Source: a virus (lineage: Duplodnaviria; Heunggongvirae; Uroviricota; Caudoviricetes). Taken from it: 41,126 nt of DNA. The DNA lies in the IMG/VR virus record IMGVR_UViG_2706794694_000014. One strand, written 5' to 3'. A program made the position numbers and the translations under genes. The notes under the pieces were generated by a model. That model was given only the letters and a program-made list of their open reading frames with translations. It had not been told where the DNA came from and ran no database searches. Below are positions 1,071-39,906 of this stretch, piece by piece (the first letter of the stretch is position 1; the number at the start of each line of letters is the position of its first letter).

Positions 1071-1341
1071 TTACTCCCTGACAGGGTTCGTAGGCCACTC
1101 AATATCAGGTGCAGTTGACGTATCAACACGGTTCAGCAATACCCGATACTTTTTCCATGCTTCCAGCAACGAGATTTCTTCCTCCGTTGCAATTTCCAGA
1201 TCTGCAGCATCCTGAAGCGGCGCAATATGCTCACTGGCTACCTGCATCAGGTTGTTTTTTGTTTCTTCCGCCTCCCGGATCCGGAACAGTTTTTCTGCTT
1301 CCGTATCCTTCACCCAGGCTGTGCCGTTCCACTTCTGAAAC
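1071..1341 (-). CDS. tfa: Tail fibre assembly protein Tfa, C-terminal part (N-terminus lost in N-run)
   Basis: C-terminal ...[28 protein letters not shown] matches the lambda Tfa C-terminus. The ORF track merges it with stf only because Ns translate as X. Confidence 0.7.
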
Positions 1342-1574: not shown

Positions 1575-4286
1575 CATACCTACTGAGCCTTGTACACCCC
1601 AGGTATTTTGACCTGAGCTTGTATAACCATATTGATAAGTATCTTTAAAAACACTGGGGTTAAATCGACGGCCATCTCTATGGCTGTGATTACCAGCTGC
1701 ATTCGTGCTGCCACTTAAACTATGGGTATGCGCACCAGTGTTATTCGTGGATTTAGTGCCGTAATCAAACGACGATGTGGTTTTCGTCCCCAAATCCGTA
1801 CTGGATGCGCTGGCGCTGTGGGTATGCGATTTAATGCCGTCCTGTTCCTGAGACAATACGGCCCGACCACTGGCAGGTTTGCCCTTAATCGTCCAGCCAC
1901 GCATATCAGGGATCACGCCTGACGGATAAGCCGCTGCAAGTTTCGGGTATGCAGATTTGTCAAAAGCCTGCCCCTGCATCAGGGCATAGCCAGACGGAAC
2001 GGTATCTGATGGCCACGGGATTGGTGCGCCAGGCGGATAAAACTGCTCTGATGGCGTATAGAGTGAATAAACTGTACCGTCCGTTAACCCTTCCGGCTTA
2101 TTAGCAGAATATGCTGGTGACGTATGAATCGTCACGCTGGCATTACTGGTATAATCCCATTGAATATTTACACCAGTCGCATAATTTCCGATTGCAACGT
2201 AAATATCGTAAGTATCACCAGATGTATTAACCCAGGCAAAATTTGTAAACCCTGTCAATGTGCGCTGCCATAAAGCACCAGTAATCCCCTTCGGATTACC
2301 ATTACCTGCACGTAAAACAAGTTCAGATATACCTGCCTGTTGAGGTGACCCCACGTTAAATCCAGCGCCACCAATCAACGTAATTGAAACAACAGAACTC
2401 GCCTGTGGCATGGTTACCGTTGCTAATTTGAACCAACCAGCACCACCGCTGAATGACATTGTTGTTGAGTTAAGCGTACCAATATCTTTCGGCGTCAGTG
2501 TTATATCCGCTGAAAGCGCCTTACCATTCACCTTACGGGCAGAAGGTACCCGACCATTCGCATTGTCATTAGCTGCTTTCACTGCTTTCGGTGTCGCAGC
2601 AAGCGTTTCAGATGTGCTGTTGGTTGCACTACTGAGCTGGACAATTCCTTTTTGTGCTGTCGTAGCGTCCTGTGCGGTGTATTTCCCGTTAGCCAGGTCA
2701 TACGCGGCCTTAACGGCTTTTGGCGTTGCCGCCTGTGACTCGGAAGTGCTGTTAGTCGCACTGCTGAGCTGAACTATCCCTTTCTGTGCTGTCGTTGCAT
2801 CCTGTGCGGTGTATTTCCCGTTAGCCAGGTCATACGCGGCCTTAACGGCTTTTNNNNNNNNNNNNNNNNNNNNNNNNNNNNNNNNNNNNNNNNNNNNNNN
2901 NNNNNNNNNNNNNNNNNNNNNNNNNNNNNNNNNNNNNNNNNNNNNNNNNNNNNNNNNNNNNNNNNNNNNNNNNNNNNNNNNNNNNNNNNNNNNNNNNNNN
3001 NNNNNNNNNNNNNNNNNNNNNNNNNNNNNNNNNNNNNNNNNNNNNNNNNNNNNNNNNNNNNNNNNNNNNNNTGACGCCTGTCTGGTCGCCTCATCTTTTG
3101 AAGCAGACGCAGATGATGCCGATGACGCCGCCGAACTGGCGGACGATGCGGCAGCCGTTTTTGAGGATTCTGCGCTGGTTTCCGACGCTTTCGCGTTCGT
3201 TTCGGATGTCTTCGCTGCGGAAGCAGACCTCGCTGCTGCGCTGGCCTGTTCAGTGGCTTCGCCAGCCTTCGTTGTGGCTGTTGAAGCGGATGATGCGGCG
3301 CTTTCTGCCGATTTTCCGGCGGCGGTGGCACTGACTGCTGCCTCCTCTGCCTTAATGGACGCCTCACGGGCCGATGATGCAGCTGCTGTCTCAGAGTCTG
3401 CCGCAGCTGAGGCGCTCTGTTCCGCTGCCGTTTCAGAAGACTTAGCATTCGTCTCGGACGTTTTTGCCGCCTTCACGGAATTTCCTGCCGCCGTTGCCGA
3501 GGAGGCTGCACTGCTGGCGCTTGTGGAGGCGTTCGTTTCTGATGATTTTGCCGCCTCTTTGGAGGCCGCCGCATCTCTGGCTGAAGTGGCGGCTTCTGAC
3601 GCTTTCGTTGTCGCAGTGGATGCAGAAGTGGCTGCTGATTTTTGTGACGCTGCAGCATTCGTTTCTGACGTTTTCGCCGCACCGGCACTGGTGGCCGCCG
3701 CGCTTTTTGAGGACTCTGCAGCGGCAGCACTTTTTGATGCTTCAGTGGCCTTTGTTGATGCCGTTCCTGCGCTGGAAGACGCCTCCTGAGCCGAAGTCGC
3801 GGCCTGTCCGGCTGACGTGCTGGCTGCACGCGCTGAGCCTGCAGCATCAGTCGCATGGGTTGCCGCCTCACGGGCAGATGTGCCGGCATCACTGGCTGAC
3901 TTCTTCGCGGCTGCCGTGTTCTGTGCCACCGCGGACGCGTTACGCGCCACCTCTTCCACCATCAGTTCAAAACGGCGCAGAGCCTCCGGACGGGCATCAT
4001 CCTCCGTCATGGCACCGAGAAAATCATTCAGCGTACCGGGTCGGGAATCTTCATACACAGTGATGGTCCCGGCATGTGACGGCGGGAATCCTTCCACCAA
4101 CAGAATAACGCTGTACTGACCGTACTCAACGTCCATGCTGTAACGCCCGGCTTCATCCGGATTTTCTGAGGCCAGCGTGTTCACCACCACCGTGGTGCTG
4201 TTACGTTTTGCTTTCAGCTGGATTGTGCAGTTCTGTACCGGTTTTCCTGTGCCGTCTTTCAGTACACCTGAAATCTTTACTGCCAT
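1575..4286 (-). CDS. stf: Side tail fibre protein (lambda Stf homologue); C-terminus lost in gap, internal gap 2854-3071
   Basis: N-terminus [62 protein letters not shown] is near-identical to lambda Stf; long Ala/Ser/Thr-rich shaft; ATG at 4286 preceded by GGGGTG (track start 4292 is a GTG two codons upstream). Confidence 0.85.
2590..2853. repeat. Intragenic tandem repeat in stf (unit ~132 bp, at least 2 copies, continuing into gap)
   Basis: gtatttcccgttagccaggtcatacgcggccttaacggctttt occurs at ~2681-2723 and ~2811-2853; encoded peptide [41 protein letters not shown] repeated. Confidence 0.8.
2854..3071. other. N-run (218 nt) inside stf, adjacent to 132-bp tandem repeats
   Basis: Run of n characters immediately after a repeated 132-bp unit. 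Confidence 0.99.
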
Positions 4287-4350: not shown

Positions 4351-5413
4351 TCAGAATTTATAACCGACACCCACGATGAAACCGTCAGTGCGCCAGTCGC
4401 CACTGCCGGAGCCTTCATAAGCAATATCAATGGCCACGGATTCGGTCGGGTTAAACTGCACGCCAGCTCCCCACGCCAGAGACGTGTTGCTGTGGCGACC
4501 GTCATCACTTCCGGTCAGCACGTCGTGCGTTTTCCCCTTATTGTCAGTTACGCGGATATAATCCCCGGAAAAAGTCGACACACGGCTGTAAGCCACACCC
4601 GCCATCGCATACGCGCTGAACCANNNNNNNNNNNNNNNNNNNNNNNNNNNNNNNNNNNNNNNNNNNNNNNNNNNNNNNNNNNNNNNNNNNNNNNNNNNNN
4701 NNNNNNNNNNNNNNNNNNNNNNNNNNNNNNNNNNNNNNNNNNNNNNNNNNNNNNNNNNNNNNNNNNNNNNNNNNNNNNNNNNNNNNNNNNNNNNNNNNNN
4801 NNNNNNNNNNNNNNNNNNNNNNNNNNNNNNNNNNNNNNNNNNNNNNNNNNNNNNNNNNNNNNNNNNNNNNNNNNNNNNNNNNNNNNNNNNNNNNNNNNNN
4901 NNNNNNNNNNNNNNNNNNNNNNNCCAGCGGGTATCGCTGTAACGGGTCAGCTGGCGATTCTTGTCTCCTGCATAGCTGAACGACGTCACCATCCCCAGTG
5001 TGTCCGTAAACTCATAACGGTATTTCACGTTAATCCCGTTCAGATCATCACTGCCGGGAACGTTCGTCCGGGCATGAAGATACCCCGCGCTCAGCGTGGA
5101 CTGATGTTCAGACGCCCATGCAGGCGCACCGGATACGGACGGAATCTTCATGCCAGCGGGTATCGCTGTAACGGGTCAGCTGGCGATTCTTGTCTCCTGC
5201 ATAGCTGAATGACGTCACCAGCCCCAGCGTATCCGTAAACTCATAACGGTATTTCACGTTAATCCCGTTCAGATCATCACTGCCGGGAACGTTGGTCCGG
5301 GCATGAAGATACCCCGCGCTCAGCGTGGACTGATGTTCAGACGCCCATGCAGGCGCACCGGATACGGCCAGACAAATGGCTGCGGACAAAATTGCTGCAC
5401 AAACTTTACGCAT
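4351..5413 (-). CDS. lom: Lom-like outer membrane protein (Ail/Lom family), disrupted in assembly by a 300-nt N-run and a ~228-bp tandem duplicate of its 5' part
   Basis: N-terminus MRKVCAAILSAAICLAVSGAPAWASEHQSTLSAGYLHARTNVPGSDDLNGINVKYRYEFTDTLG and C-terminus ...DIAYEGSGSGDWRTDGFIVGVGYKF match lambda Lom; 4924-5151 nearly duplicates 5152-5380. Confidence 0.8.
4624..4923. other. N-run (300 nt) inside lom
   Basis: Run of n characters. Confidence 0.99.
4924..5151. repeat. Tandem duplicate (~228 bp, a few mismatches) of lom 5' coding region 5152-5380
   Basis: Direct comparison of the two segments; junction encodes ...TRWHEDSVR then restarts at the signal-peptide sequence VSGAPAWA. Confidence 0.85.
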
Positions 5414-10251: not shown

Positions 10252-11158
10252 TTACTGCGAAAGTTTGTTAATGGAAAGGAAGCCGCCAAAGTTGCCGACG
10301 TTATTGCGAAACTTACAGCCGCTCAGGCATTTGCTGCATTTATCCTTCGTGATATCGGACGTCGGCTGATCATATTCATCCGCGACCGCCGGACCGTGAT
10401 AACCGCACTCATCGCCGCGATAGGTCCAGGTGCAGGTGTTGGCCAGCATGATACGTCCCGGAAAAACAGCGCCATCCGTTTCCGTCGGCGTGGACAGTAC
10501 AAANNNNNNNNNNNNNNNNNNNNNNNNNNNNNNNNNNNNNNNNNNNNNNNNNNNNNNNNNNNNNNNNNNNNNNNNNNNNNNNNNNNNNNNNNNNNNNNNN
10601 NNNNNNNNNNNNNNNNNNNNNNNNNNNNNNNNNNNNNNNNNNNNNNNNNNNNNNNNNNNNNNNNNNNNNNNNNNNNNNNNNNNNNNNNNNNNNNNNNNNN
10701 NNNNNNNNNNNNGAGGCACTCACCGCGCTCAGTTCGCTGCACTGCTCGATGCGCCAGCGGCTGATCACCTCCTGCTCCGGATCGGCGTCACTGTTTCCGT
10801 TGACGAAGTTCACCGCATCCAGAAAACGGGCGTAAACCTTACGCCGGACCACCGTTCCGCCGACCAGACTCTGCAGATCTTCCGCCATCCCGGTGACCAT
10901 GCCGTGCAGGTTAGAAACCGTCAGTGTCGGACGGGCAGCACTGCCCTTGCCGTTCAGTTCAAAACCACTCCCCTGAATGGGATACGGCTGATACTGTCGC
11001 CCCTGCCAGGTGACCGGCTCACCTTTTTCGTTCTGCTCATTACAGAAAAAATAACGTTCTCCACCGACCTCTGTCAGATCGATTTCCCAGAGCACCACCT
11101 GGGCTGACTGAGTGAGGCGTGTCGTCTCATGATGTGTTTCCTGTGGAATATCCTGCAT
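10252..11158 (-). CDS. L: Minor tail protein L (interrupted by N-run; flanks are contiguous in protein sequence)
   Basis: MQDIPQETHHETTRLTQSAQVVLWEIDLTEVGGERYFFCNEQNEKGEPVTWQGRQYQPYPIQGSGFELNGKG...; C-terminal Cys cluster TCTWTYRGDECGY...CSKCLSGC. Confidence 0.9.
10504..10712. other. N-run (209 nt) inside L
   Basis: Run of n characters; flanking codons encode ...SELSAVSA(S) and FVLSTPTETDG, which are adjacent in lambda L as recalled. Confidence 0.99.
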
Positions 11159-25982: not shown

Positions 25983-26292
25983 NNNNNNNNNNNNNNNNNN
26001 NNNNNNNNNNNNNNNNNNNNNNNNNNNNNNNNNNNNNNNNNNNNNNNNNNNNNNNNNNNNNNNNNNNNNNNNNNNNNNNNNNNNNNNNNNNNNNNNNNNN
26101 NNNNNNNNNNNNNNNNNNNNNNNNNNNNNNNNNNNNNNNNNNNNNNNNNNNNNNNNNNNNNNNNNNNNNNNNNNNNNNNNNNNNNNNNNNNNNNNNNNNN
26201 NNNNNNNNNNNNNNNNNNNNNNNNNNNNNNNNNNNNNNNNNNNNNNNNNNNNNNNNNNNNNNNNNNNNNNNNNNNNNNNNNNNNNNNNNNNN
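25983..26292. other. N-run (310 nt) removing most of the holin gene
   Basis: Run of n characters. Confidence 0.99.
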
Positions 26293-26431: not shown

Positions 26432-27484
26432 TTATTTCCCCACCAGCTCGTTTATCTCTTTCACTGTCTGATTAAACCGCTCTGACTCAAGCTCAACACC
26501 TAAGGCCCGACGCCCCAGCGCCATTGCTGCTTTTATTGTGGAACCGGATCCCATAAAAAAATCAGCAACCAGATCACCTGGTCGACTACTGGCATTGATT
26601 ATTTGCCTGAGCATATCCGCCGGTTTCTCACACGGATGTTTCCCCGGGTAGAACTGAACGGGTTTATGCATCCAGACATCGGTATAAGGCACGGAGACTG
26701 ATACGGAGAAATAGCGCCGGAGAGATTTAAACTCATCCAGCAATTCAGAATATTTACGATTCAGTGAATCATAAGATGCCACCAGCTGGTGGTGTGGTTG
26801 TTCCAGTTGTTGTTCCTGAAACTTCTCTGCCGCTATACGGGAAAACAGTGCCTGTAACTTCCGATAGTCAGCCTCATTCGGCAACTGCCACTGACTGGCA
26901 CCAAACCAGTGGGAAACCATATTTTTCTTACCTGTGGCTTCGGCAATTTGTTTTGCCGTTATACCCAGTTCGGCACGAGCATCCCTGAAATACGATATCA
27001 GCGGTGCCATTATGTGCTGTTTGAGTTCCCTTTCTTTTGCCGCATAGCCGTCACTTTTGCCGCGATATGGCCCCTGGTAATGTTCAGCAAACAGAACGCG
27101 CTCTGTGGCAGGAAAATATGCGCGCAGACTTTCTTTATTACACCCATTCCAACGTCCGGACGGCTTCGCCCAGATGATATGGTTAAGCACGTTGAAACGT
27201 TCACGCATCATGATCTCAATATCAGATGCCAGGCGATGCCCACAGAACAGGTAAAGGCTTCCGGCAGGTTTCAACACCCGCCAGAACTGGGCCAGACAGT
27301 GGTCCAGCCACTTAAGGTAATCTTCGTCCCCTTTCCACTGATTGTCCCAACCGTTGGGTTTCACCTTGAAGTAAGGCGGATCGGTAACAATCAGGTCAAT
27401 GGAATCATCAGGCAGGGACTGAATAAAATGCAGGCAATCAGCGTTGATTAAATCAACACTGTTTATTTTTACAGTATTTTTCAT
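26432..27484 (-). CDS. DNA methyltransferase (N6-adenine/N4-cytosine, beta class), orphan
   Basis: IVTDPPYF (motif IV) near the N-terminus; no adjacent restriction endonuclease. Confidence 0.8.
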
Positions 27485-27634: not shown

Positions 27635-27862
27635 TTACTGGCAGCGTCTGAATTTATTCCCGTACCCGCCGTTATCCTTCGCCAGACCCGCCAGAACTAA
27701 CTGAGTCAGTATTAACTGGCACCGGGCTTCGCTTACTCCGGTAGTTCTCGTCATCATGCGTGGCGTTACCCACTTGTCAGCAGGTAAGAAATGAAGGACT
27801 GCGGCGGCGGTTTCTGTCATATCTTGCTGTTTTAGCATGTCTTTTTCCCTTCTGGTTAACAT
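27635..27862 (-). CDS. Hypothetical small protein (possible winged-helix DNA-binding)
   Basis: 75-aa ORF between the moron and the MTase; start codon uncertain. Confidence 0.35.
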   Translation of the reverse strand: MLTRREKDMLKQQDMTETAAAVLHFLPADKWVTPRMMTRTTGVSEARCQLILTQLVLAGLAKDNGGYGNKFRRCQ

Positions 27863-27959
27863 GACATACCAATAACTCTTGTCTAAAAAGCCAGCAAGAT
27901 AAAAAGTCAGTATTCACGACCACCAGCGTGTTTACTGTACTGCACCAAGTTTACGGGTA

Positions 27960-27988
27960 CAAAAAACCCGCTCAGTGGCGGGTTGCTA
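27960..27988 (-). terminator. Rho-independent terminator downstream of the lipoprotein moron
   Basis: Minus strand aacccgcc-actga-gcgggtt followed by ttttttg. Confidence 0.65.
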
Positions 27989-28061
27989 TCACAGCTATAT
28001 ATTTACTTATTATGCCGTTACTAACATTTATCTTCGACATATAATCGAAAACAAGGTTTGC

Positions 28062-28487
28062 TTAAAACTCTGCTTTCATTTTATCCGGGAATTTTTTATT
28101 TGCAGCATAATAACTACCAAGTACATAAGCGTTCATTTGCTGCTCTACATCAACCCGACATGCCGCACTAGAACAAGCTCCACTGATAAGCCCAAAAGAA
28201 CTCCCTTTAGCAGAGAGATCAGCTTTGATTTCCTCTACAGTGTTTTTCCCCATAGCAACTACACACCCTGTCACAATATATCTAGCTTTCACATCATCCA
28301 TGCTAAGGATAGTAGTTTTCGCAATTTTGCTGTATCCATCATTTTTATAAACATCCATGGCAAACGCACGGCAATCTGTATAATACGGACTTGCTTTAAC
28401 TTGCGAATACTCAGGTAATTTCATACCTGCACAACCAACTAAACAAAAACCTATCGCTGCTATTAATACCTTTTTCATTACAGTCAT
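28062..28487 (-). CDS. Moron lipoprotein (141 aa, signal peptide + lipobox), function unknown
   Basis: MKKVLIAAIGFCLVGCAG lipobox; AT-rich segment flanked by two near-identical hairpins; sits at the Q-to-lysis locus (position of stx in Stx phages). Confidence 0.7.
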   Translation of the reverse strand: MTVMKKVLIAAIGFCLVGCAGMKLPEYSQVKASPYYTDCRAFAMDVYKNDGYSKIAKTTILSMDDVKARYIVTGCVVAMGKNTVEEIKADLSAKGSSFGLISGACSSAACRVDVEQQMNAYVLGSYYAANKKFPDKMKAEF

Positions 28488-28633
28488 AACCTAGAAGCAT
28501 CATTGAAACTAATTTATTAAATAACCATCGAGTTTCTGGAATACAGACGTTAACCATCTCTCCAAAATCTAAAAGATAATAAGAAAAAATGTTTAACGCA
28601 CCAATCCATTTCATAGTTTCATGAGACATCAGG

Positions 28634-28664
28634 CACAAAAAACCCGCTCAGCGGCGGGTTTTTG
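28634..28664. terminator. Bidirectional rho-independent terminator (tR'-like) about 100 nt downstream of Q
   Basis: aaaaaacccgc-tcagc-ggcgggttttt, with A-run and T-run on either side. Confidence 0.7.
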
Positions 28665-28689
28665 ACATTTACCAACGGTAGACATACAA

Positions 28690-28730
28690 GGCCCATCGTT
28701 GAGAAAATCTTATCCATATTTTTTGAAAAA
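28690..28730 (-). promoter_or_regulatory. Candidate late promoter PR' (-35 TTGCAT, 17-nt spacer, -10 TAAGAT on minus strand)
   Basis: Sigma-70-like hexamers in the Q-proximal intergenic region upstream of the tR'-like hairpin. Confidence 0.3.
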
Positions 28731-28766
28731 TGCAAGTATCACGTCGACATCTTCGGCGAAAATTAT

Positions 28767-29519
28767 CTATCTTGTCACTTTTCTCAATTGCGATTCAGCA
28801 TACGCTTCTTCCTGCCAGCACTTTGTAACCAGTTTATTAATAACGTCTGCATATCCTTTGTACCACTGATAATCCGTCAGGTCCGGTACCAGTTTCTGGA
28901 CATGATGCCGCGCCAGTGTGGTTGGTAAACGGCTAAACCGGTTGCCATTGCAACGCCCACAAATCTTATAAACAGGCACACCATGAAGCCGGGTTCTTTT
29001 TTCATCCAGGACAATACCTTTACCCTTACACCCTCTGCACGCTGTGCTGACTTCTCCCTTACCATGGCAATGCTGACATAGTTCCTTCACCCACTCTTCC
29101 TTGATAACAGATTCCCCGCTTCTGGAGTGTTTCACCACTTCGCGCAATACATTATGAAATCCAGTACCAGCACAATGCTCACAGCGAGCCTTACTTGCCG
29201 CAGACCTGGAATAATCAGCAAAGGCAAAATTCACAAGGTAAGGGATGATCTGTAACCGGGTTTCTTCACTCAATTTGTTCAATGTCGGGTTATCCAGTGC
29301 CATCGCGTAATTGAGCAGACCTTCAATCGCAAATTGAGGATCCTGAACACCAACTTTTGCCAGGAATAAGGCAAACCCAAGCGGTGCTTTCGACTGCACC
29401 ATCCCCTGCGCAGCCATCACATCCGTAATCGTTAAACCACCTGAGCCTGTCGCCGGTGCGTCATCGCTCAATTTTGGAGATTTTGGGGAGTAATATTTTG
29501 GTAAGGCTTCAAGGTTCAT
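28767..29519 (-). CDS. Q: Late-gene antitermination protein Q (QuuD/phage-82-type)
   Basis: MNLEALPKYYSPKSPKLSDDAPATG...; Zn-finger Cys clusters CEHCAGTG, CQHCHGKGE, CRGCKGKG, CGRCNGNR; resembles E. coli QuuD. Confidence 0.9.
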   Translation of the reverse strand: MNLEALPKYYSPKSPKLSDDAPATGSGGLTITDVMAAQGMVQSKAPLGFALFLAKVGVQDPQFAIEGLLNYAMALDNPTLNKLSEETRLQIIPYLVNFAFADYSRSAASKARCEHCAGTGFHNVLREVVKHSRSGESVIKEEWVKELCQHCHGKGEVSTACRGCKGKGIVLDEKRTRLHGVPVYKICGRCNGNRFSRLPTTLARHHVQKLVPDLTDYQWYKGYADVINKLVTKCWQEEAYAESQLRKVTR

Positions 29520-29532
29520 GCTCGTTCTCCAC

Positions 29533-30528
29533 TTACGCCAATACGCCAATTGCCAGCGCACGATCGATAAAACGAAATATCAGCTCCAGCTGGGAGCCAT
29601 ACTTCTCTTCAAATGCCACGGTATCCGCATGCAGCTCGTCGTGATGCTTTCTGCACAAAGGCAACACAAAGAGGTCATGCGCTTTTGTACCCATTCCACC
29701 CTGACCGTGGCCTATCAGGTGGTGGGGATCATCAGCAGGCTTTCCACAACATGCACACGGCTGTGTCTTAACCCAGCGCGTGTACTTTTCATTAACCCAG
29801 CGGCGGCGTTTTGGGCGTAACATAAAAGACTCCGGCGACTCCGGATCCACTTTCAGCGCCAGCACCTTTTTTGCCTTATCCTGGATGATGCTGGTGGCAG
29901 GAACCGAAGGCACAAGGTCACTTTCCCGGGTGACAGACGGCACAACAGGCTTTGGTAATCTCAGTGCCTTACGGGCTGCACTTTCCGGTAAGGCATCCGC
30001 CAGGTCATTACGAATCAGCCACCAGCACAGTTCCGGCATTGTCACAACGTGACTATCATCAAAACCGAGATCCCGACGCACAACAGACAACACCCAGCGG
30101 GCACAGTTATCCGTTGCCATTGATTCCAGCCGTTCCGTGAACTGATCGCGCAGCTGGTTATCGCAGTGCCAGCACAGACGGATTGCGCCCGGAGCGTGTC
30201 GCATTGTGGTCATGTTCTCGCTGTGCCAGTCGGAATGAGGCCACTGGCAGCCTTTTTCACGAAGTAACCAGCTTTCAAGACATTCCACGCCACCAGCACG
30301 ACGGATCACTGCCTCATTGCGGAACACGGCCCGAACGGCAGGATCATCCGCCAGCGGTTGTGATGCCGCCGGAACGGCACCACTGGCGAAAGATGAATAA
30401 CGTTCCGGCTCAGGCTCCAGCAGAACACGCCCCTGCATAAACAGGGGCATCAGCTCTGAACCTGGCCTGAACAATACGATCCCCATACGCGGGGCAATTT
30501 CAGGGGTCAGTAGTGCTCTCACGGTCAC
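29533..30528 (-). CDS. DUF968-like protein with HNH-like His motif
   Basis: C-terminal CACCGKPADDPHHLIGHGQGGMGTKAHD...CRKHHDELH; typical nin-region position. Confidence 0.6.
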   Translation of the reverse strand: MTVRALLTPEIAPRMGIVLFRPGSELMPLFMQGRVLLEPEPERYSSFASGAVPAASQPLADDPAVRAVFRNEAVIRRAGGVECLESWLLREKGCQWPHSDWHSENMTTMRHAPGAIRLCWHCDNQLRDQFTERLESMATDNCARWVLSVVRRDLGFDDSHVVTMPELCWWLIRNDLADALPESAARKALRLPKPVVPSVTRESDLVPSVPATSIIQDKAKKVLALKVDPESPESFMLRPKRRRWVNEKYTRWVKTQPCACCGKPADDPHHLIGHGQGGMGTKAHDLFVLPLCRKHHDELHADTVAFEEKYGSQLELIFRFIDRALAIGVLA

Positions 30529-34263: not shown

Positions 34264-35092
34264 GACGATGCCCTCCGCTGATATTCAGGAGACGGTGAAT
34301 ATGAAAATTAGCCTTATCCGCCAGACGAATACGTTCAGCTTGCAAGTTAAGAAGGGTTTCTACCAGAACCTGATGTGCCTGCGGATCCGAAAGAGTTACC
34401 TTGCGCAGAGCACGTAGTGCAGTTGTTACATAACTGAGTTTATGTAAGTCTTCATCATTCAGACGAGTGAGGGCTGGGACAGTAGCCATGATGGCAGCCT
34501 CCTTGATCGGTGAAATACTTCCACCACCGGAAACGCCAATTTCGCTGGTGGTGAACTGAACGGGGTTGGCGTAACCGGTGATCAAGGAAACCGGCGCATC
34601 TTTCGATGCCCCCGCCCAGCCCACCATAACTTTGATGTGAGCAAATGCGGACGATAAAAAAGACGCTGGCGCGTCATATATCGCCTTGATCAATTCCAGG
34701 ACGCCAATCCCGGCACCCGCTTTATAAGGTGCCTGAACAGTGTAACGTCCCGGAATGGCAGAATCAATGTGCTGGTGGTCCTTCACACTCAACAAAATCA
34801 CGCCTGAATTTCCACAAAGGACTAAAGCACTCATGCGGGTAGTCTTTGCGAAGATAGATAACGCGCTGTGTTTCTGGCTCCCAACGAATAACATGAACAT
34901 AAAGTCCTCTTCCGTCACGAAACCAGCGGTTAAGTTCCTGCACAACTCGCCCCCCACAGTCAGGTAAAGTTCTCTGTGGTTACTTACAGCCAGGTGATTT
35001 GGTAATCTGCATTCATGCCGTAACAACAGGTGTTCAGCGACGCTGACCACCAGCTGTTGCGACAAACGGTTATTTGCCGTTAAACTGTTCAT
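34256..35092 (-). CDS. Hypothetical protein (replication-region, unrecognised)
   Basis: 278-aa ORF translationally coupled to neighbours; no motif recognised. Confidence 0.5.
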   Translation of the reverse strand: MNSLTANNRLSQQLVVSVAEHLLLRHECRLPNHLAVSNHRELYLTVGGELCRNLTAGFVTEEDFMFMLFVGSQKHSALSIFAKTTRMSALVLCGNSGVILLSVKDHQHIDSAIPGRYTVQAPYKAGAGIGVLELIKAIYDAPASFLSSAFAHIKVMVGWAGASKDAPVSLITGYANPVQFTTSEIGVSGGGSISPIKEAAIMATVPALTRLNDEDLHKLSYVTTALRALRKVTLSDPQAHQVLVETLLNLQAERIRLADKANFHIHRLLNISGGHRHA

Positions 35093-36716: not shown

Positions 36717-37152
36717 TATCTAAAAGAAACACAGCACAGGCAAGATTAAACAAAATTTGGTTGTAACACGGCGTATGGCACATGCGTCGTTAGCGGTCTG
36801 GGGACGTTAAAGGGGACAATCCACTCCTTGCTCGGGCAAACAAACCAGGTAGCCGGAATGTGCAAGTCAATGATGATGCTGATAAGACGCCTAACCAGCG
36901 TGGCGATTCGGTTTGACGCCTGGGAAGAGACCAGGGTGCAACGATGAGGACATTTATGGAACCGCGACAAAGTGTGGTGCCGTAACTGGCTAAGTGCTCT
37001 CAGCGTTGTGGTGAATGCGCAGGCTGATGCGCGAAAGACATTGCAGCTAATGCGGAAAAGAGCTGTTCGGCGGGGCAATTAAACGCCCGTGAGAGTCTGA
37101 AATAACCGCAAGCCGGAGATCAGCACCGGTCACCACAACAGCCACTGCTTTG

Positions 37153-37198
37153 GCGGTACCAGTTTGTACACTTGCTTCCGGCTGGTACCGCTCTTTTT
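37153..37198 (+). terminator. Terminator-like hairpin in the early-left leader (tL-like)
   Basis: 10-bp perfect inverted repeat gcggtaccag ... ctggtaccgc with 19-nt loop, followed by tcttttt. Confidence 0.5.
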
Positions 37199-39595: not shown

Positions 39596-39877
39596 ATGAA
39601 TACCTTGTTTTTACTGATGGCTGAATTCAATACCCCAAACATTGAACTCTCAGCAGTTAGTCAAAAATACTTTGGTATGAGTCCAGCCACAGCAGAAGCA
39701 AAAGCAAACGCTTGTAAGTTGCCTGTACCTACATATCGCATCGGTACATCACAAAAAGCAAAACGTTGCATCAATATTCAGGATCTTGCGGAATACATAG
39801 ACAAAAGACGAGAAGAAGGACGTATCGAGTGGGAACAGGTCAGAACAGGCAAACAGAAGGGCAAAGAACATCACTAA
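39596..39877 (+). CDS. PrtN-family (pyocin-activator/excisionase-like) DNA-binding protein
   Basis: MNTLFLLMAEFNTPNIELSAVSQKYFGMSPATAEAKANACKLPVPTYRIGTSQKAKRCINIQDLAEYID matches the PrtN-family pattern as recalled; GGAGA RBS. Confidence 0.6.
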   Translation: MNTLFLLMAEFNTPNIELSAVSQKYFGMSPATAEAKANACKLPVPTYRIGTSQKAKRCINIQDLAEYIDKRREEGRIEWEQVRTGKQKGKEHH

Positions 39878-39878
39878 A

Positions 39879-39906
39879 GAAAAAACCCGCCTAAAGGCGG
39901 GTTTTC
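39879..39906. terminator. Bidirectional rho-independent terminator between convergent operons
   Basis: aaaaaacccgcc-taaa-ggcgggtttt. Confidence 0.8.

Follow-up and report, generated by a model that had tools for sequence, protein, structure and literature searches.

The 41,126-nucleotide (nt) stretch of DNA analysed here (IMG/VR record IMGVR_UViG_2706794694_000014, a member of the Caudoviricetes; hereafter the window) carries a small lipoprotein gene inserted directly behind the late terminator tR'. The evidence supports a self-contained moron cassette of ≈676 bp, made up of a leader, the lipoprotein gene and a terminator, and we consider it a genuine but ordinary moron. An earlier sequence-only reading had described a gene for a 141-amino-acid lipoprotein with the lipobox LVGC directly downstream of the antiterminator gene Q, a PR'-type promoter and a tR'-like hairpin. 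All of these elements were recovered in place, and all are encoded on the minus strand of the window, in the order (5' to 3' on that strand) Q, PR', pause element, hairpin 1 (tR'), leader, lipoprotein open reading frame (ORF) and hairpin 2. The parts that delimit and make up the cassette are:

28632–28663, minus strand: tR' intrinsic terminator, copy 1 of the repeat, AAAAACCCGC-CGCUGA-GCGGGUUUUU, then UGUGCC
28488–28631, minus strand: cassette leader, AT-rich, non-coding, 144 nt, holding a candidate sigma-70 promoter
28062–28487, minus strand: prelipoprotein gene, 141 amino acids, lipobox LVGC, phrog_4748
27956–27984, minus strand: cassette terminator, copy 2 of the repeat, AACCCGC-CACUGA-GCGGGUU, then UUUUGUACC; the right-hand insertion boundary

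The hairpins that flank the unit, which the sequence-only reading had called near-identical, proved to lie within a 29-nt direct repeat (27956–27984 and 28632–28660) that is identical at 27 of 29 positions and spaced by 676 bp. The hairpin cores read AACCCGC-TCAGT-GGCGGGTT at 27965–27984 and AACCCGC-TCAGC-GGCGGGTT at 28641–28660, and on the transcribed strand each forms a G+C stem of 7–10 bp with a 6-nt loop followed by U6 (−13 to −14.5 kcal/mol). The tR' copy is a perfect 10/10-bp inverted repeat (AAAAACCCGC/GCGGGTTTTT) with a 6-nt loop and a U-run, and has a fold energy of −14.5 kcal/mol (z-score −2.6). Hairpin 2 lies ≈77 nt past the stop codon of the lipoprotein gene, was called terminator-like by the scan, has a fold energy of −13.3 kcal/mol, and is predicted to be the cassette's own downstream terminator. 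Both cassette terminators are annotated as "terminator" in phage Ayreon, at the equivalent positions; in Ayreon and in the phages that carry Shiga toxin type 2c (Stx2c), the two hairpin copies are identical over 24/24 nt. The DNA between the repeats (27985–28631) has a GC content of 35.7%, versus 51.4% for the whole window, as expected from the earlier description of an AT-rich module. The stem–loop pattern was matched three times in the window, against 0.01 matches expected by chance. The third hairpin (stem AACCCGC...GCGGGTT, loop CTAAAG) is found at 39884–39903, just past a 93-amino-acid ORF at 39596–39877 on the plus strand.

Presence or absence of the cassette at this one site is a common polymorphism. 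In phage vB_EcoM-720R4, Q, PR', the downstream 68-amino-acid ORF, the methylase and the lysis genes are as in the window, but the lipoprotein gene is missing and there is only a single hairpin; on that hairpin, the regions homologous to the window on its left and right share 35 nt. When 5426 complete Escherichia coli genomes were searched with a 221-nt probe across the empty junction, the junction was contiguous in 269, while a full-length, intact lipoprotein gene was present in 215 (≈4%). Comparison of the locus across related prophages thus found both occupied and empty alleles, and the earlier suggestion that the module had been acquired as a unit held up, both in these single-hairpin sites and in a Salmonella unit that lies behind a different Q. 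The features found here are those of a moron: absence from collinear relatives with precise boundaries (a 676-bp insertion with 29-nt direct repeats), a downstream terminator sequence and a deviant base composition.

The hairpin also marks the point at which otherwise different phages become alike. In cdtI, PhiR40_1 and PhiR55_1, a hairpin of this family is preceded by a short Q that differs from that of the window, and by genes on the reverse strand. At the hairpin, cdtI, PhiR40_1 and 720R4 resume their homology to the window (27984–27988), and that of PhiR55_1 likewise begins there. In a Salmonella prophage, a 76%-identical protein is encoded behind a different Q (DUF1133/weak PF06530). Two Salmonella loci (L005 and L018) contain the complete hairpin–leader–gene–hairpin unit behind a Q of the DUF1133 type; DNA similarity starts at the first hairpin, and the two loci diverge from each other immediately after hairpin 2. 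The proportion of synonymous differences (pS) between the E. coli and Salmonella genes is 0.68, near saturation, yet the hairpins are almost identical, suggesting that they have been kept as terminators by selection or have been subject to repeated recombination. In our view, the terminator repeat probably serves the cassette in two ways, as its insulator and as the joint at which it recombines. Gain of the cassette would take two crossovers, and its loss a single crossover between the hairpin repeats.

The 141-amino-acid product is identical to RefSeq WP_000217632.1, annotated as "hypothetical protein", and matched phrog_4748, an unannotated family of the PHROGs database, with an E-value of 7.5e-91. 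Its signal peptide (MKKVLIAAIGFCLVG) has the layout MTVM-KK-VLIAAIGFC-LVGC, in which the lipobox L16-V17-G18-C19 is encoded by codons 28442–28431 (Cys19 at 28433–28431) and is followed by Ala at position +2. The true start is probably the second ATG at 28478 (M4), giving a protein of 138 amino acids, given that the Salmonella homologue does not share the first ATG. A lipobox of the form [LVI][ASTVI][GAS]C follows a positively charged n-region and a hydrophobic h-region; a K/R-rich n-region, hydrophobic core and lipobox were seen at 7/7 homologous loci, so that the lack of a lipoprotein signal, which the sequence-only reading had named as the outcome that would speak against it, did not arise. 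The +2 residue was Ala, Ser or Val in all homologues and never Asp. Because the signal peptide has a lipobox and a +2 residue other than Asp, outer-membrane (Lol) sorting is predicted, and the product is predicted to be an outer-membrane lipoprotein.

Across eight homologues (54–98% identical), 60 alignment columns are invariant, among them G18-C19 of the lipobox, the cysteines at positions 39, 75, 105 and 110, and the motifs VYKNDGYSK and, at the C-terminus, KxFP...K.EF. Pairwise ratios of nonsynonymous to synonymous substitution (dN/dS) were 0.08–0.22 with synonymous sites near saturation, a substitution pattern that shows strong purifying selection on the ORF. An AlphaFold2 model, made from the alignment of eight sequences, has six helices and no strands (predicted local distance difference test score, pLDDT, 70.8; predicted template modelling score, pTM, 0.72), and the mature domain is accordingly predicted to be all-alpha. 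As the domain is predicted to be exported, its four invariant cysteines may form two disulfides.

The transcription signals in front of the cassette, and the resident genes on either side, are as follows:

28767–29519, minus strand: Q, late-gene antiterminator, a lambda-Q homologue of 250 amino acids (context, outside the cassette)
28707–28735, minus strand: PR'-type late promoter read from the sequence, with −35 TTGCAT (28735–28730), a 17-nt spacer and −10 TAAGAT (28712–28707)
28692–28700, minus strand: pause element AACGATGGG, six bases past the −10 and the same as the lambda PR' transcript start
27635–27862, minus strand: ORF of 68–75 amino acids, phrog_331, the first resident late-region gene after the cassette (context)

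In Pfam, the longer Q ORF (28767–29561, 264 amino acids) matched PF03589, "Antitermination protein Q", with an E-value of 6.9e-54, while the N- and C-terminal parts of the 250-amino-acid Q matched the lambda Q structures 7ubm (2.9e-37) and 4mo1 (2.1e-24). The Prokaryotic Genome Annotation Pipeline (PGAP) has a 753-nt "antitermination protein" at the position equivalent to window 28767–29519. Q also bears an inserted DnaJ-type CxxCxGxG zinc-finger segment (PF00684, E-value 1.6e-8, residues ≈162–207 of the 264-amino-acid ORF) that lambda Q does not have. The late promoter lies within 100 nt after the Q stop codon and aligns with lambda PR' (TTGACT-17-TAAATT); it scores 8/12, and was consequently not called by the consensus promoter scan, which had a threshold of 9/12. 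The predicted PR' start site (+1) is at ≈28700, and the AACGATGGG block is invariant in an alignment of the window, lambda and 720R4. In lambda, AACGAT is a −10-like element that pauses the sigma-containing polymerase and lets Q load. Since the promoter block aligns with that of lambda and the pause-element block is invariant, the late promoter of the window is, on its sequence, a lambda-type PR'. The terminated PR' transcript is predicted to be ≈65–70 nt long. Q homology, a −10-like pause element and a downstream intrinsic terminator, the ingredients of lambda-type Q/PR'/tR' late control, were thus all found.

Downstream of the cassette come the phrog_331 ORF, a DNA methylase gene (26432–27484) and then the lysis genes; in phage 720R4, which has the empty site, the phrog_331 ORF stands immediately behind the one hairpin. 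The window contains masked runs of N at 1342–1574, 2854–3071, 4624–4923, 10504–10712 and 25983–26292; the last of these removes most of the holin region after the methylase gene, and the lysis genes are therefore not fully readable.

Within the leader, a candidate promoter can be read as TTGGTG (28604–28599)-17-TATTAT (28581–28576). A promoter-like site (TTGGTA-18-TATCAT) is kept in position in Salmonella, though the leaders are only ≈60% identical. Independent expression in the lysogen, which the sequence-only reading had thought possible, was not supported beyond this weak promoter-like site conserved in position. No conserved ORF was found in the leader by comparison with its Salmonella counterpart. 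A 75-amino-acid ORF at 28411–28638 on the minus strand (phrog_37626) was deemed spurious, being interrupted in all frames in the Salmonella leader, and is probably an annotation artefact, judging from that comparison; it starts inside tR' and overlaps the start of the lipoprotein gene, and the annotations of Ayreon and of an Stx2k phage list portions of it as very small hypothetical proteins. The idea that the leader holds a structured or regulatory RNA was likewise rejected: the fold z-score was −1.07, the Rfam hits were sub-threshold and driven by the terminator, and no Rfam family was matched.

The protein family is tiny. It makes up 9 clusters in a set of 5.8 billion proteins, and an exhaustive profile search of 1.84 billion representatives recovered no more than 8 members. 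The family is confined to temperate phages and SSU5-like phage-plasmids of Enterobacterales. At 98–100% identity, the cassette is present in mEp460, Ayreon, PhiR47_1, 15 Stx2c-converting phages (all of the Stx2c phages in the collection) and phiSTEC1575-Stx2k, and an identical protein is encoded by strain JJ1886 of sequence type 131 (ST131). The earlier remark that Stx phages carry stx at this locus was borne out, with an identical cassette between Q and stx2 in both Stx2c and Stx2k phages: the gene order in phiSTEC1575-Stx2k is Q, cassette, small regulators, tRNAs and stx2AB, and in an Stx2c phage stx2A begins 1.9 kb past the second hairpin. In an O111:H8 prophage, the cassette is followed by a tRNA and typical Stx-phage late genes.

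More distant homologues occupy other settings. With tblastn, homologues at 62–65% identity were found in ≈200 non-mobilizable plasmids of 100–120 kb (Klebsiella, Cronobacter, Citrobacter and Buttiauxella), and also, at the same identity, in Klebsiella phage-plasmid genomes. The homologue sits in the replication region of SSU5-like phage-plasmids, and in Rac-like Salmonella prophages it stands alone in the early region, divergent from vapBC. The most distant family member lies among insertion sequence (IS) elements, and the distant member P0015 is an orphan for which no further relatives were found. (A tblastn match in Pseudomonas phage UF_RH1, at 28.7% identity and an E-value of 8e-4, was discarded because it does not lie in an ORF.) This variety of settings far from lysis genes argues that the lipoprotein gene is an autonomous accessory function and not a component of the lysis machinery, and implies that it can be expressed on its own. 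In the SSU5-like phage-plasmids, a second, unrelated lipoprotein gene starts 10 nt after the homologue, forming a two-lipoprotein operon; the lambdoid cassette has no such partner:

L014 5434–5733, L006 5446–5745 and L019 751–1050: partner lipoprotein of 99 amino acids, lipobox LSGC/LSAC, phrog_7666, no Pfam match

The homology and structure searches that the sequence-only reading had pointed to turned up no known family or fold. Neither the whole nor the mature lipoprotein matched a Pfam family at E ≤ 1 beyond noise; there was no match in NCBIfam, none among the PADLOC models (0 families at E ≤ 1) and none by sequence in the Protein Data Bank (PDB), and a Foldseek search of the model against BFVD and the PDB gave no match with E ≤ 0.001. 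The only PHROG matches were to the unannotated phrog_4748 and, weakly, phrog_8068. The candidate families named earlier (Bor, Cor/Llp and MliC/PliC) accordingly fell away as relatives. Bor was rejected for want of a match to Pfam Lambda_Bor or NCBIfam, Cor and Llp for want of a PHROG, PDB-sequence or fold match, and MliC, PliC and Ivy because there was no Pfam match and the model consists of six helices with no strands; an all-alpha model does not agree with the beta-barrel fold of MliC and PliC. A functional analogy to any of these proteins may nevertheless exist.

Taken together, we consider it moderately probable that the unit is a tR'-bounded moron with a weak promoter of its own, boosted by Q, that encodes an envelope-acting lipoprotein. 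In the lysogen, constitutive PR' transcripts would stop at tR' after ≈65–70 nt, and the weak leader promoter could give low-level expression of the lipoprotein, with the second terminator halting the leader transcript before the methylase, holin and endolysin genes; insulation of this kind would be needed for any insert that brings a promoter to the Q–tR' site. Upon induction, Q-modified RNA polymerase would read through both terminators, and of all late products the lipoprotein would become the first and the one transcribed most abundantly. After export and lipidation at Cys19, the protein would be delivered by Lol to the outer membrane's inner leaflet, and oxidation by DsbA would yield two disulfides. 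As to its role, we tentatively favour, at somewhat less than an even chance, an envelope-level block of adsorption or DNA entry by other phages, or masking of a receptor that protects progeny on lysed cells, by analogy with Cor and Llp, which do so, and because the Q-to-lysis slot often holds envelope conversion genes.

Several observations weigh against this explanation. The leader promoter is weak (8/12), is seen in two diverged lineages only, and was not called by the consensus scan. The window copy of the protein fails a strict, PROSITE PS51257-style lipoprotein pattern ({DERK}(6)-[LIVMFWSTAG](2)-[LIVMFYSTAGCQ]-[AGS]-C), which 6/7 homologues pass; the failure is due only to the Cys at −4 (FCLVGC), and the core lipobox LVGC is canonical despite it. 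PHROGs, PADLOC and the fold searches revealed no exclusion protein that is homologous to the lipoprotein or similar to it in fold, and the occurrence of the gene in phages of differing types argues against a block of one specific receptor. Because the AlphaFold2 model is only moderately confident, its missing fold neighbours are weak evidence for a new fold. A literature search found no study of the lipoprotein gene and no experimental or transcript data.

Three other explanations have to be set beside it. The lipoprotein might be a host-fitness or virulence conversion factor of the Bor/Iss or TraT kind, made in the lysogen and conferring resistance to serum, bile or antimicrobial peptides, or aiding colonisation, with no action on phages. 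We regard this as unlikely, if by no means negligible. The stand-alone unit, its terminator insulation and possible own promoter would suit such a factor, as would its frequency in clinical E. coli (ST131 JJ1886 and Shiga toxin-producing, or STEC, O111) and in Klebsiella and Cronobacter phage-plasmids, and a gene of benefit to the host could well be carried, as this one is, by temperate elements that are not related to each other; against this, the protein has no similarity to Bor (Pfam Lambda_Bor), TraT or another family, and its predicted all-alpha fold has no neighbours. A purely late lytic helper, silent in the lysogen, would instead modify the envelope before lysis, through endolysin or spanin action or the release of outer-membrane vesicles, and in Stx phages toxin release could be affected. 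The position of the gene is what such a helper would lead one to expect: immediately behind PR'/tR' and ahead of the lysis genes in phages of E. coli and Salmonella, and, in Stx2c and Stx2k phages, with PR' on one side and stx2 on the other. The weakness of its candidate promoter would suit such a helper too. We nevertheless think it improbable: homologues lie far from lysis genes, in early regions and phage-plasmid replication regions, many collinear phages lack the gene, and a second terminator would be needless if nothing initiated inside the cassette.

The least probable explanation, to which we give very little credence, is that the ORF is non-functional, either a decaying remnant or a chance AT-rich reading frame, and that the hairpins are unrelated generic terminators alike by chance. 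The bare annotation as a "hypothetical protein", the very small family (8–9 clusters among billions of proteins) and the presence of a third hairpin with the same stem at 39884–39903 could be taken in this sense. However, dN/dS was 0.08–0.22 over pairs near synonymous saturation, the lipobox and four cysteines are invariant across homologues that are 54–98% identical, and full-length copies are intact in 215 genomes, a body of sequence evidence by which a non-functional ORF is effectively excluded. Chance similarity of the hairpins is contradicted by a repeat that exceeds the stem (27/29 nt here, and 24/24 in the Stx2c phages and Ayreon) and by an empty site that has exactly one hairpin copy. 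The Q-boosted moron with an envelope-acting lipoprotein remains our preferred explanation. A more far-reaching version of it would make phrog_4748 the founder of a new class of outer-membrane lipoproteins with an unseen all-alpha, two-disulfide fold, which would block a general step in siphophage entry or alter the envelope at lysis, spread as a terminator-bracketed cassette by recombination at the tR' hairpin, and be co-induced with Stx as the first Q-dependent gene upstream of stx2c and stx2k; as a whole, we hold this to be doubtful.

Morons at the Q-to-lysis locus, lipoprotein morons and terminator-bounded modules are already known kinds, and databases list the gene both as a hypothetical protein and as a PHROG. 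New here are a precisely documented cassette, whose tR' is duplicated and for which a corresponding empty site is shown, the position of this cassette upstream of stx2c and stx2k, and a protein family without detectable relatives or fold neighbours. Current understanding is not overturned: the phenomenon is a known one, well documented in this case, and its cargo is uncharacterised. The duplicated tR' would offer a clean natural example of how an insert with its own promoter can be placed ahead of lysis or toxin genes while leaving their control intact, and of terminator hairpins serving as mosaic joints. The cassette is also epidemiologically visible, being carried by ≈4% of the complete genomes of E. 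coli (ST131 and STEC among them), by 15 Stx2c phages and one Stx2k phage, and, in homologous form, by ≈200 phage-plasmids of Klebsiella, Cronobacter and Citrobacter. If an exclusion or envelope function were true, the protein would add a new, structurally unrelated family to the few phage lipoproteins that remodel the Gram-negative surface, and if it did represent a new class, co-induction with Shiga toxin could influence the spread of toxin phages or the release of toxin.

Some features elsewhere in the window and in a related prophage were noted in passing. A small RNA modulated by ArcA in E. coli K1 RS218, "sRNA-17", has been described in an mEp460-like prophage, in a study in which hypothetical genes were removed from the annotation before intergenic regions were defined (PMC7719688). 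An overlap of sRNA-17 with the lipoprotein gene was rejected, as its primers map to the early region: the full-length primers, the Northern probe and the promoter primer are all exact matches at window 37004–37197 on the minus strand. Rfam matches at gathering level were obtained for a C4 antisense RNA (34544–34631, minus strand, 82 bits) and the Hfq-binding RNA isrK (34656–34732, minus strand, 64 bits), which lie side by side, as in P1/P7-type immunity/antirepressor control regions, and for IS009 RNA (1114–1312, minus strand, 221 bits) near the tail-fibre end of the window. In the closely related prophage of E. coli A14 (L016 43871–45770), a gene pair for a reverse transcriptase and a SLATT-domain protein, resembling a retron or defence pair, lies beside the tail-fibre genes, and a Panacea-domain gene is found at the other end.

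Compared with known systems, the late region of the window resembles that of lambda (Q, PR', 6S RNA and tR'), with which it shares a homologous Q, the −35/−10 spacing, AACGATGGG and an intrinsic terminator. It differs in the distance from PR' to tR', which is ≈65–70 nt in the window versus 194 nt in lambda, and in the duplication of tR' around the insert. The stx1 and stx2 genes of Stx phages occupy the same slot as the cassette, directly after Q, PR' and tR', and their expression is boosted by Q antitermination. The porin genes lc of PA-2 and nmpC of DLP12 are also accessory genes at the Q-to-lysis locus. The products of stx, lc and nmpC are all unrelated to the cassette lipoprotein.

On the side of the protein, Cor (phi80, N15 and HK022) and Llp (T5) are superinfection-exclusion lipoproteins that inactivate FhuA. 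They resemble what is predicted for the cassette protein in being small phage outer-membrane lipoproteins with one or more disulfides that act in the periplasm; however, the mature domain of the cassette protein is about twice as large and predicted to be all-alpha, and there is no sequence or family match. MliC, PliC, Ivy and T4 Spackle are likewise small exported envelope proteins, and MliC is also a lipoprotein, but the cassette product has no Pfam match to any of these families. Lambda Bor is an outer-membrane lipoprotein, as the cassette product is predicted to be, and is not homologous to it. The classical morons (those of HK97 and HK022, and lambda bor and lom) are like the cassette in being extra genes that are missing from collinear relatives, deviate in composition, are flanked by a terminator sequence of their own and are inserted between genes of a phage operon; the cassette may also resemble them in having its own promoter. 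The cassette differs from them in its location, at Q–tR' and not downstream of the lysis genes, and in being bounded by a duplicated copy of the resident tR', a feature that has not been described for the classical morons.

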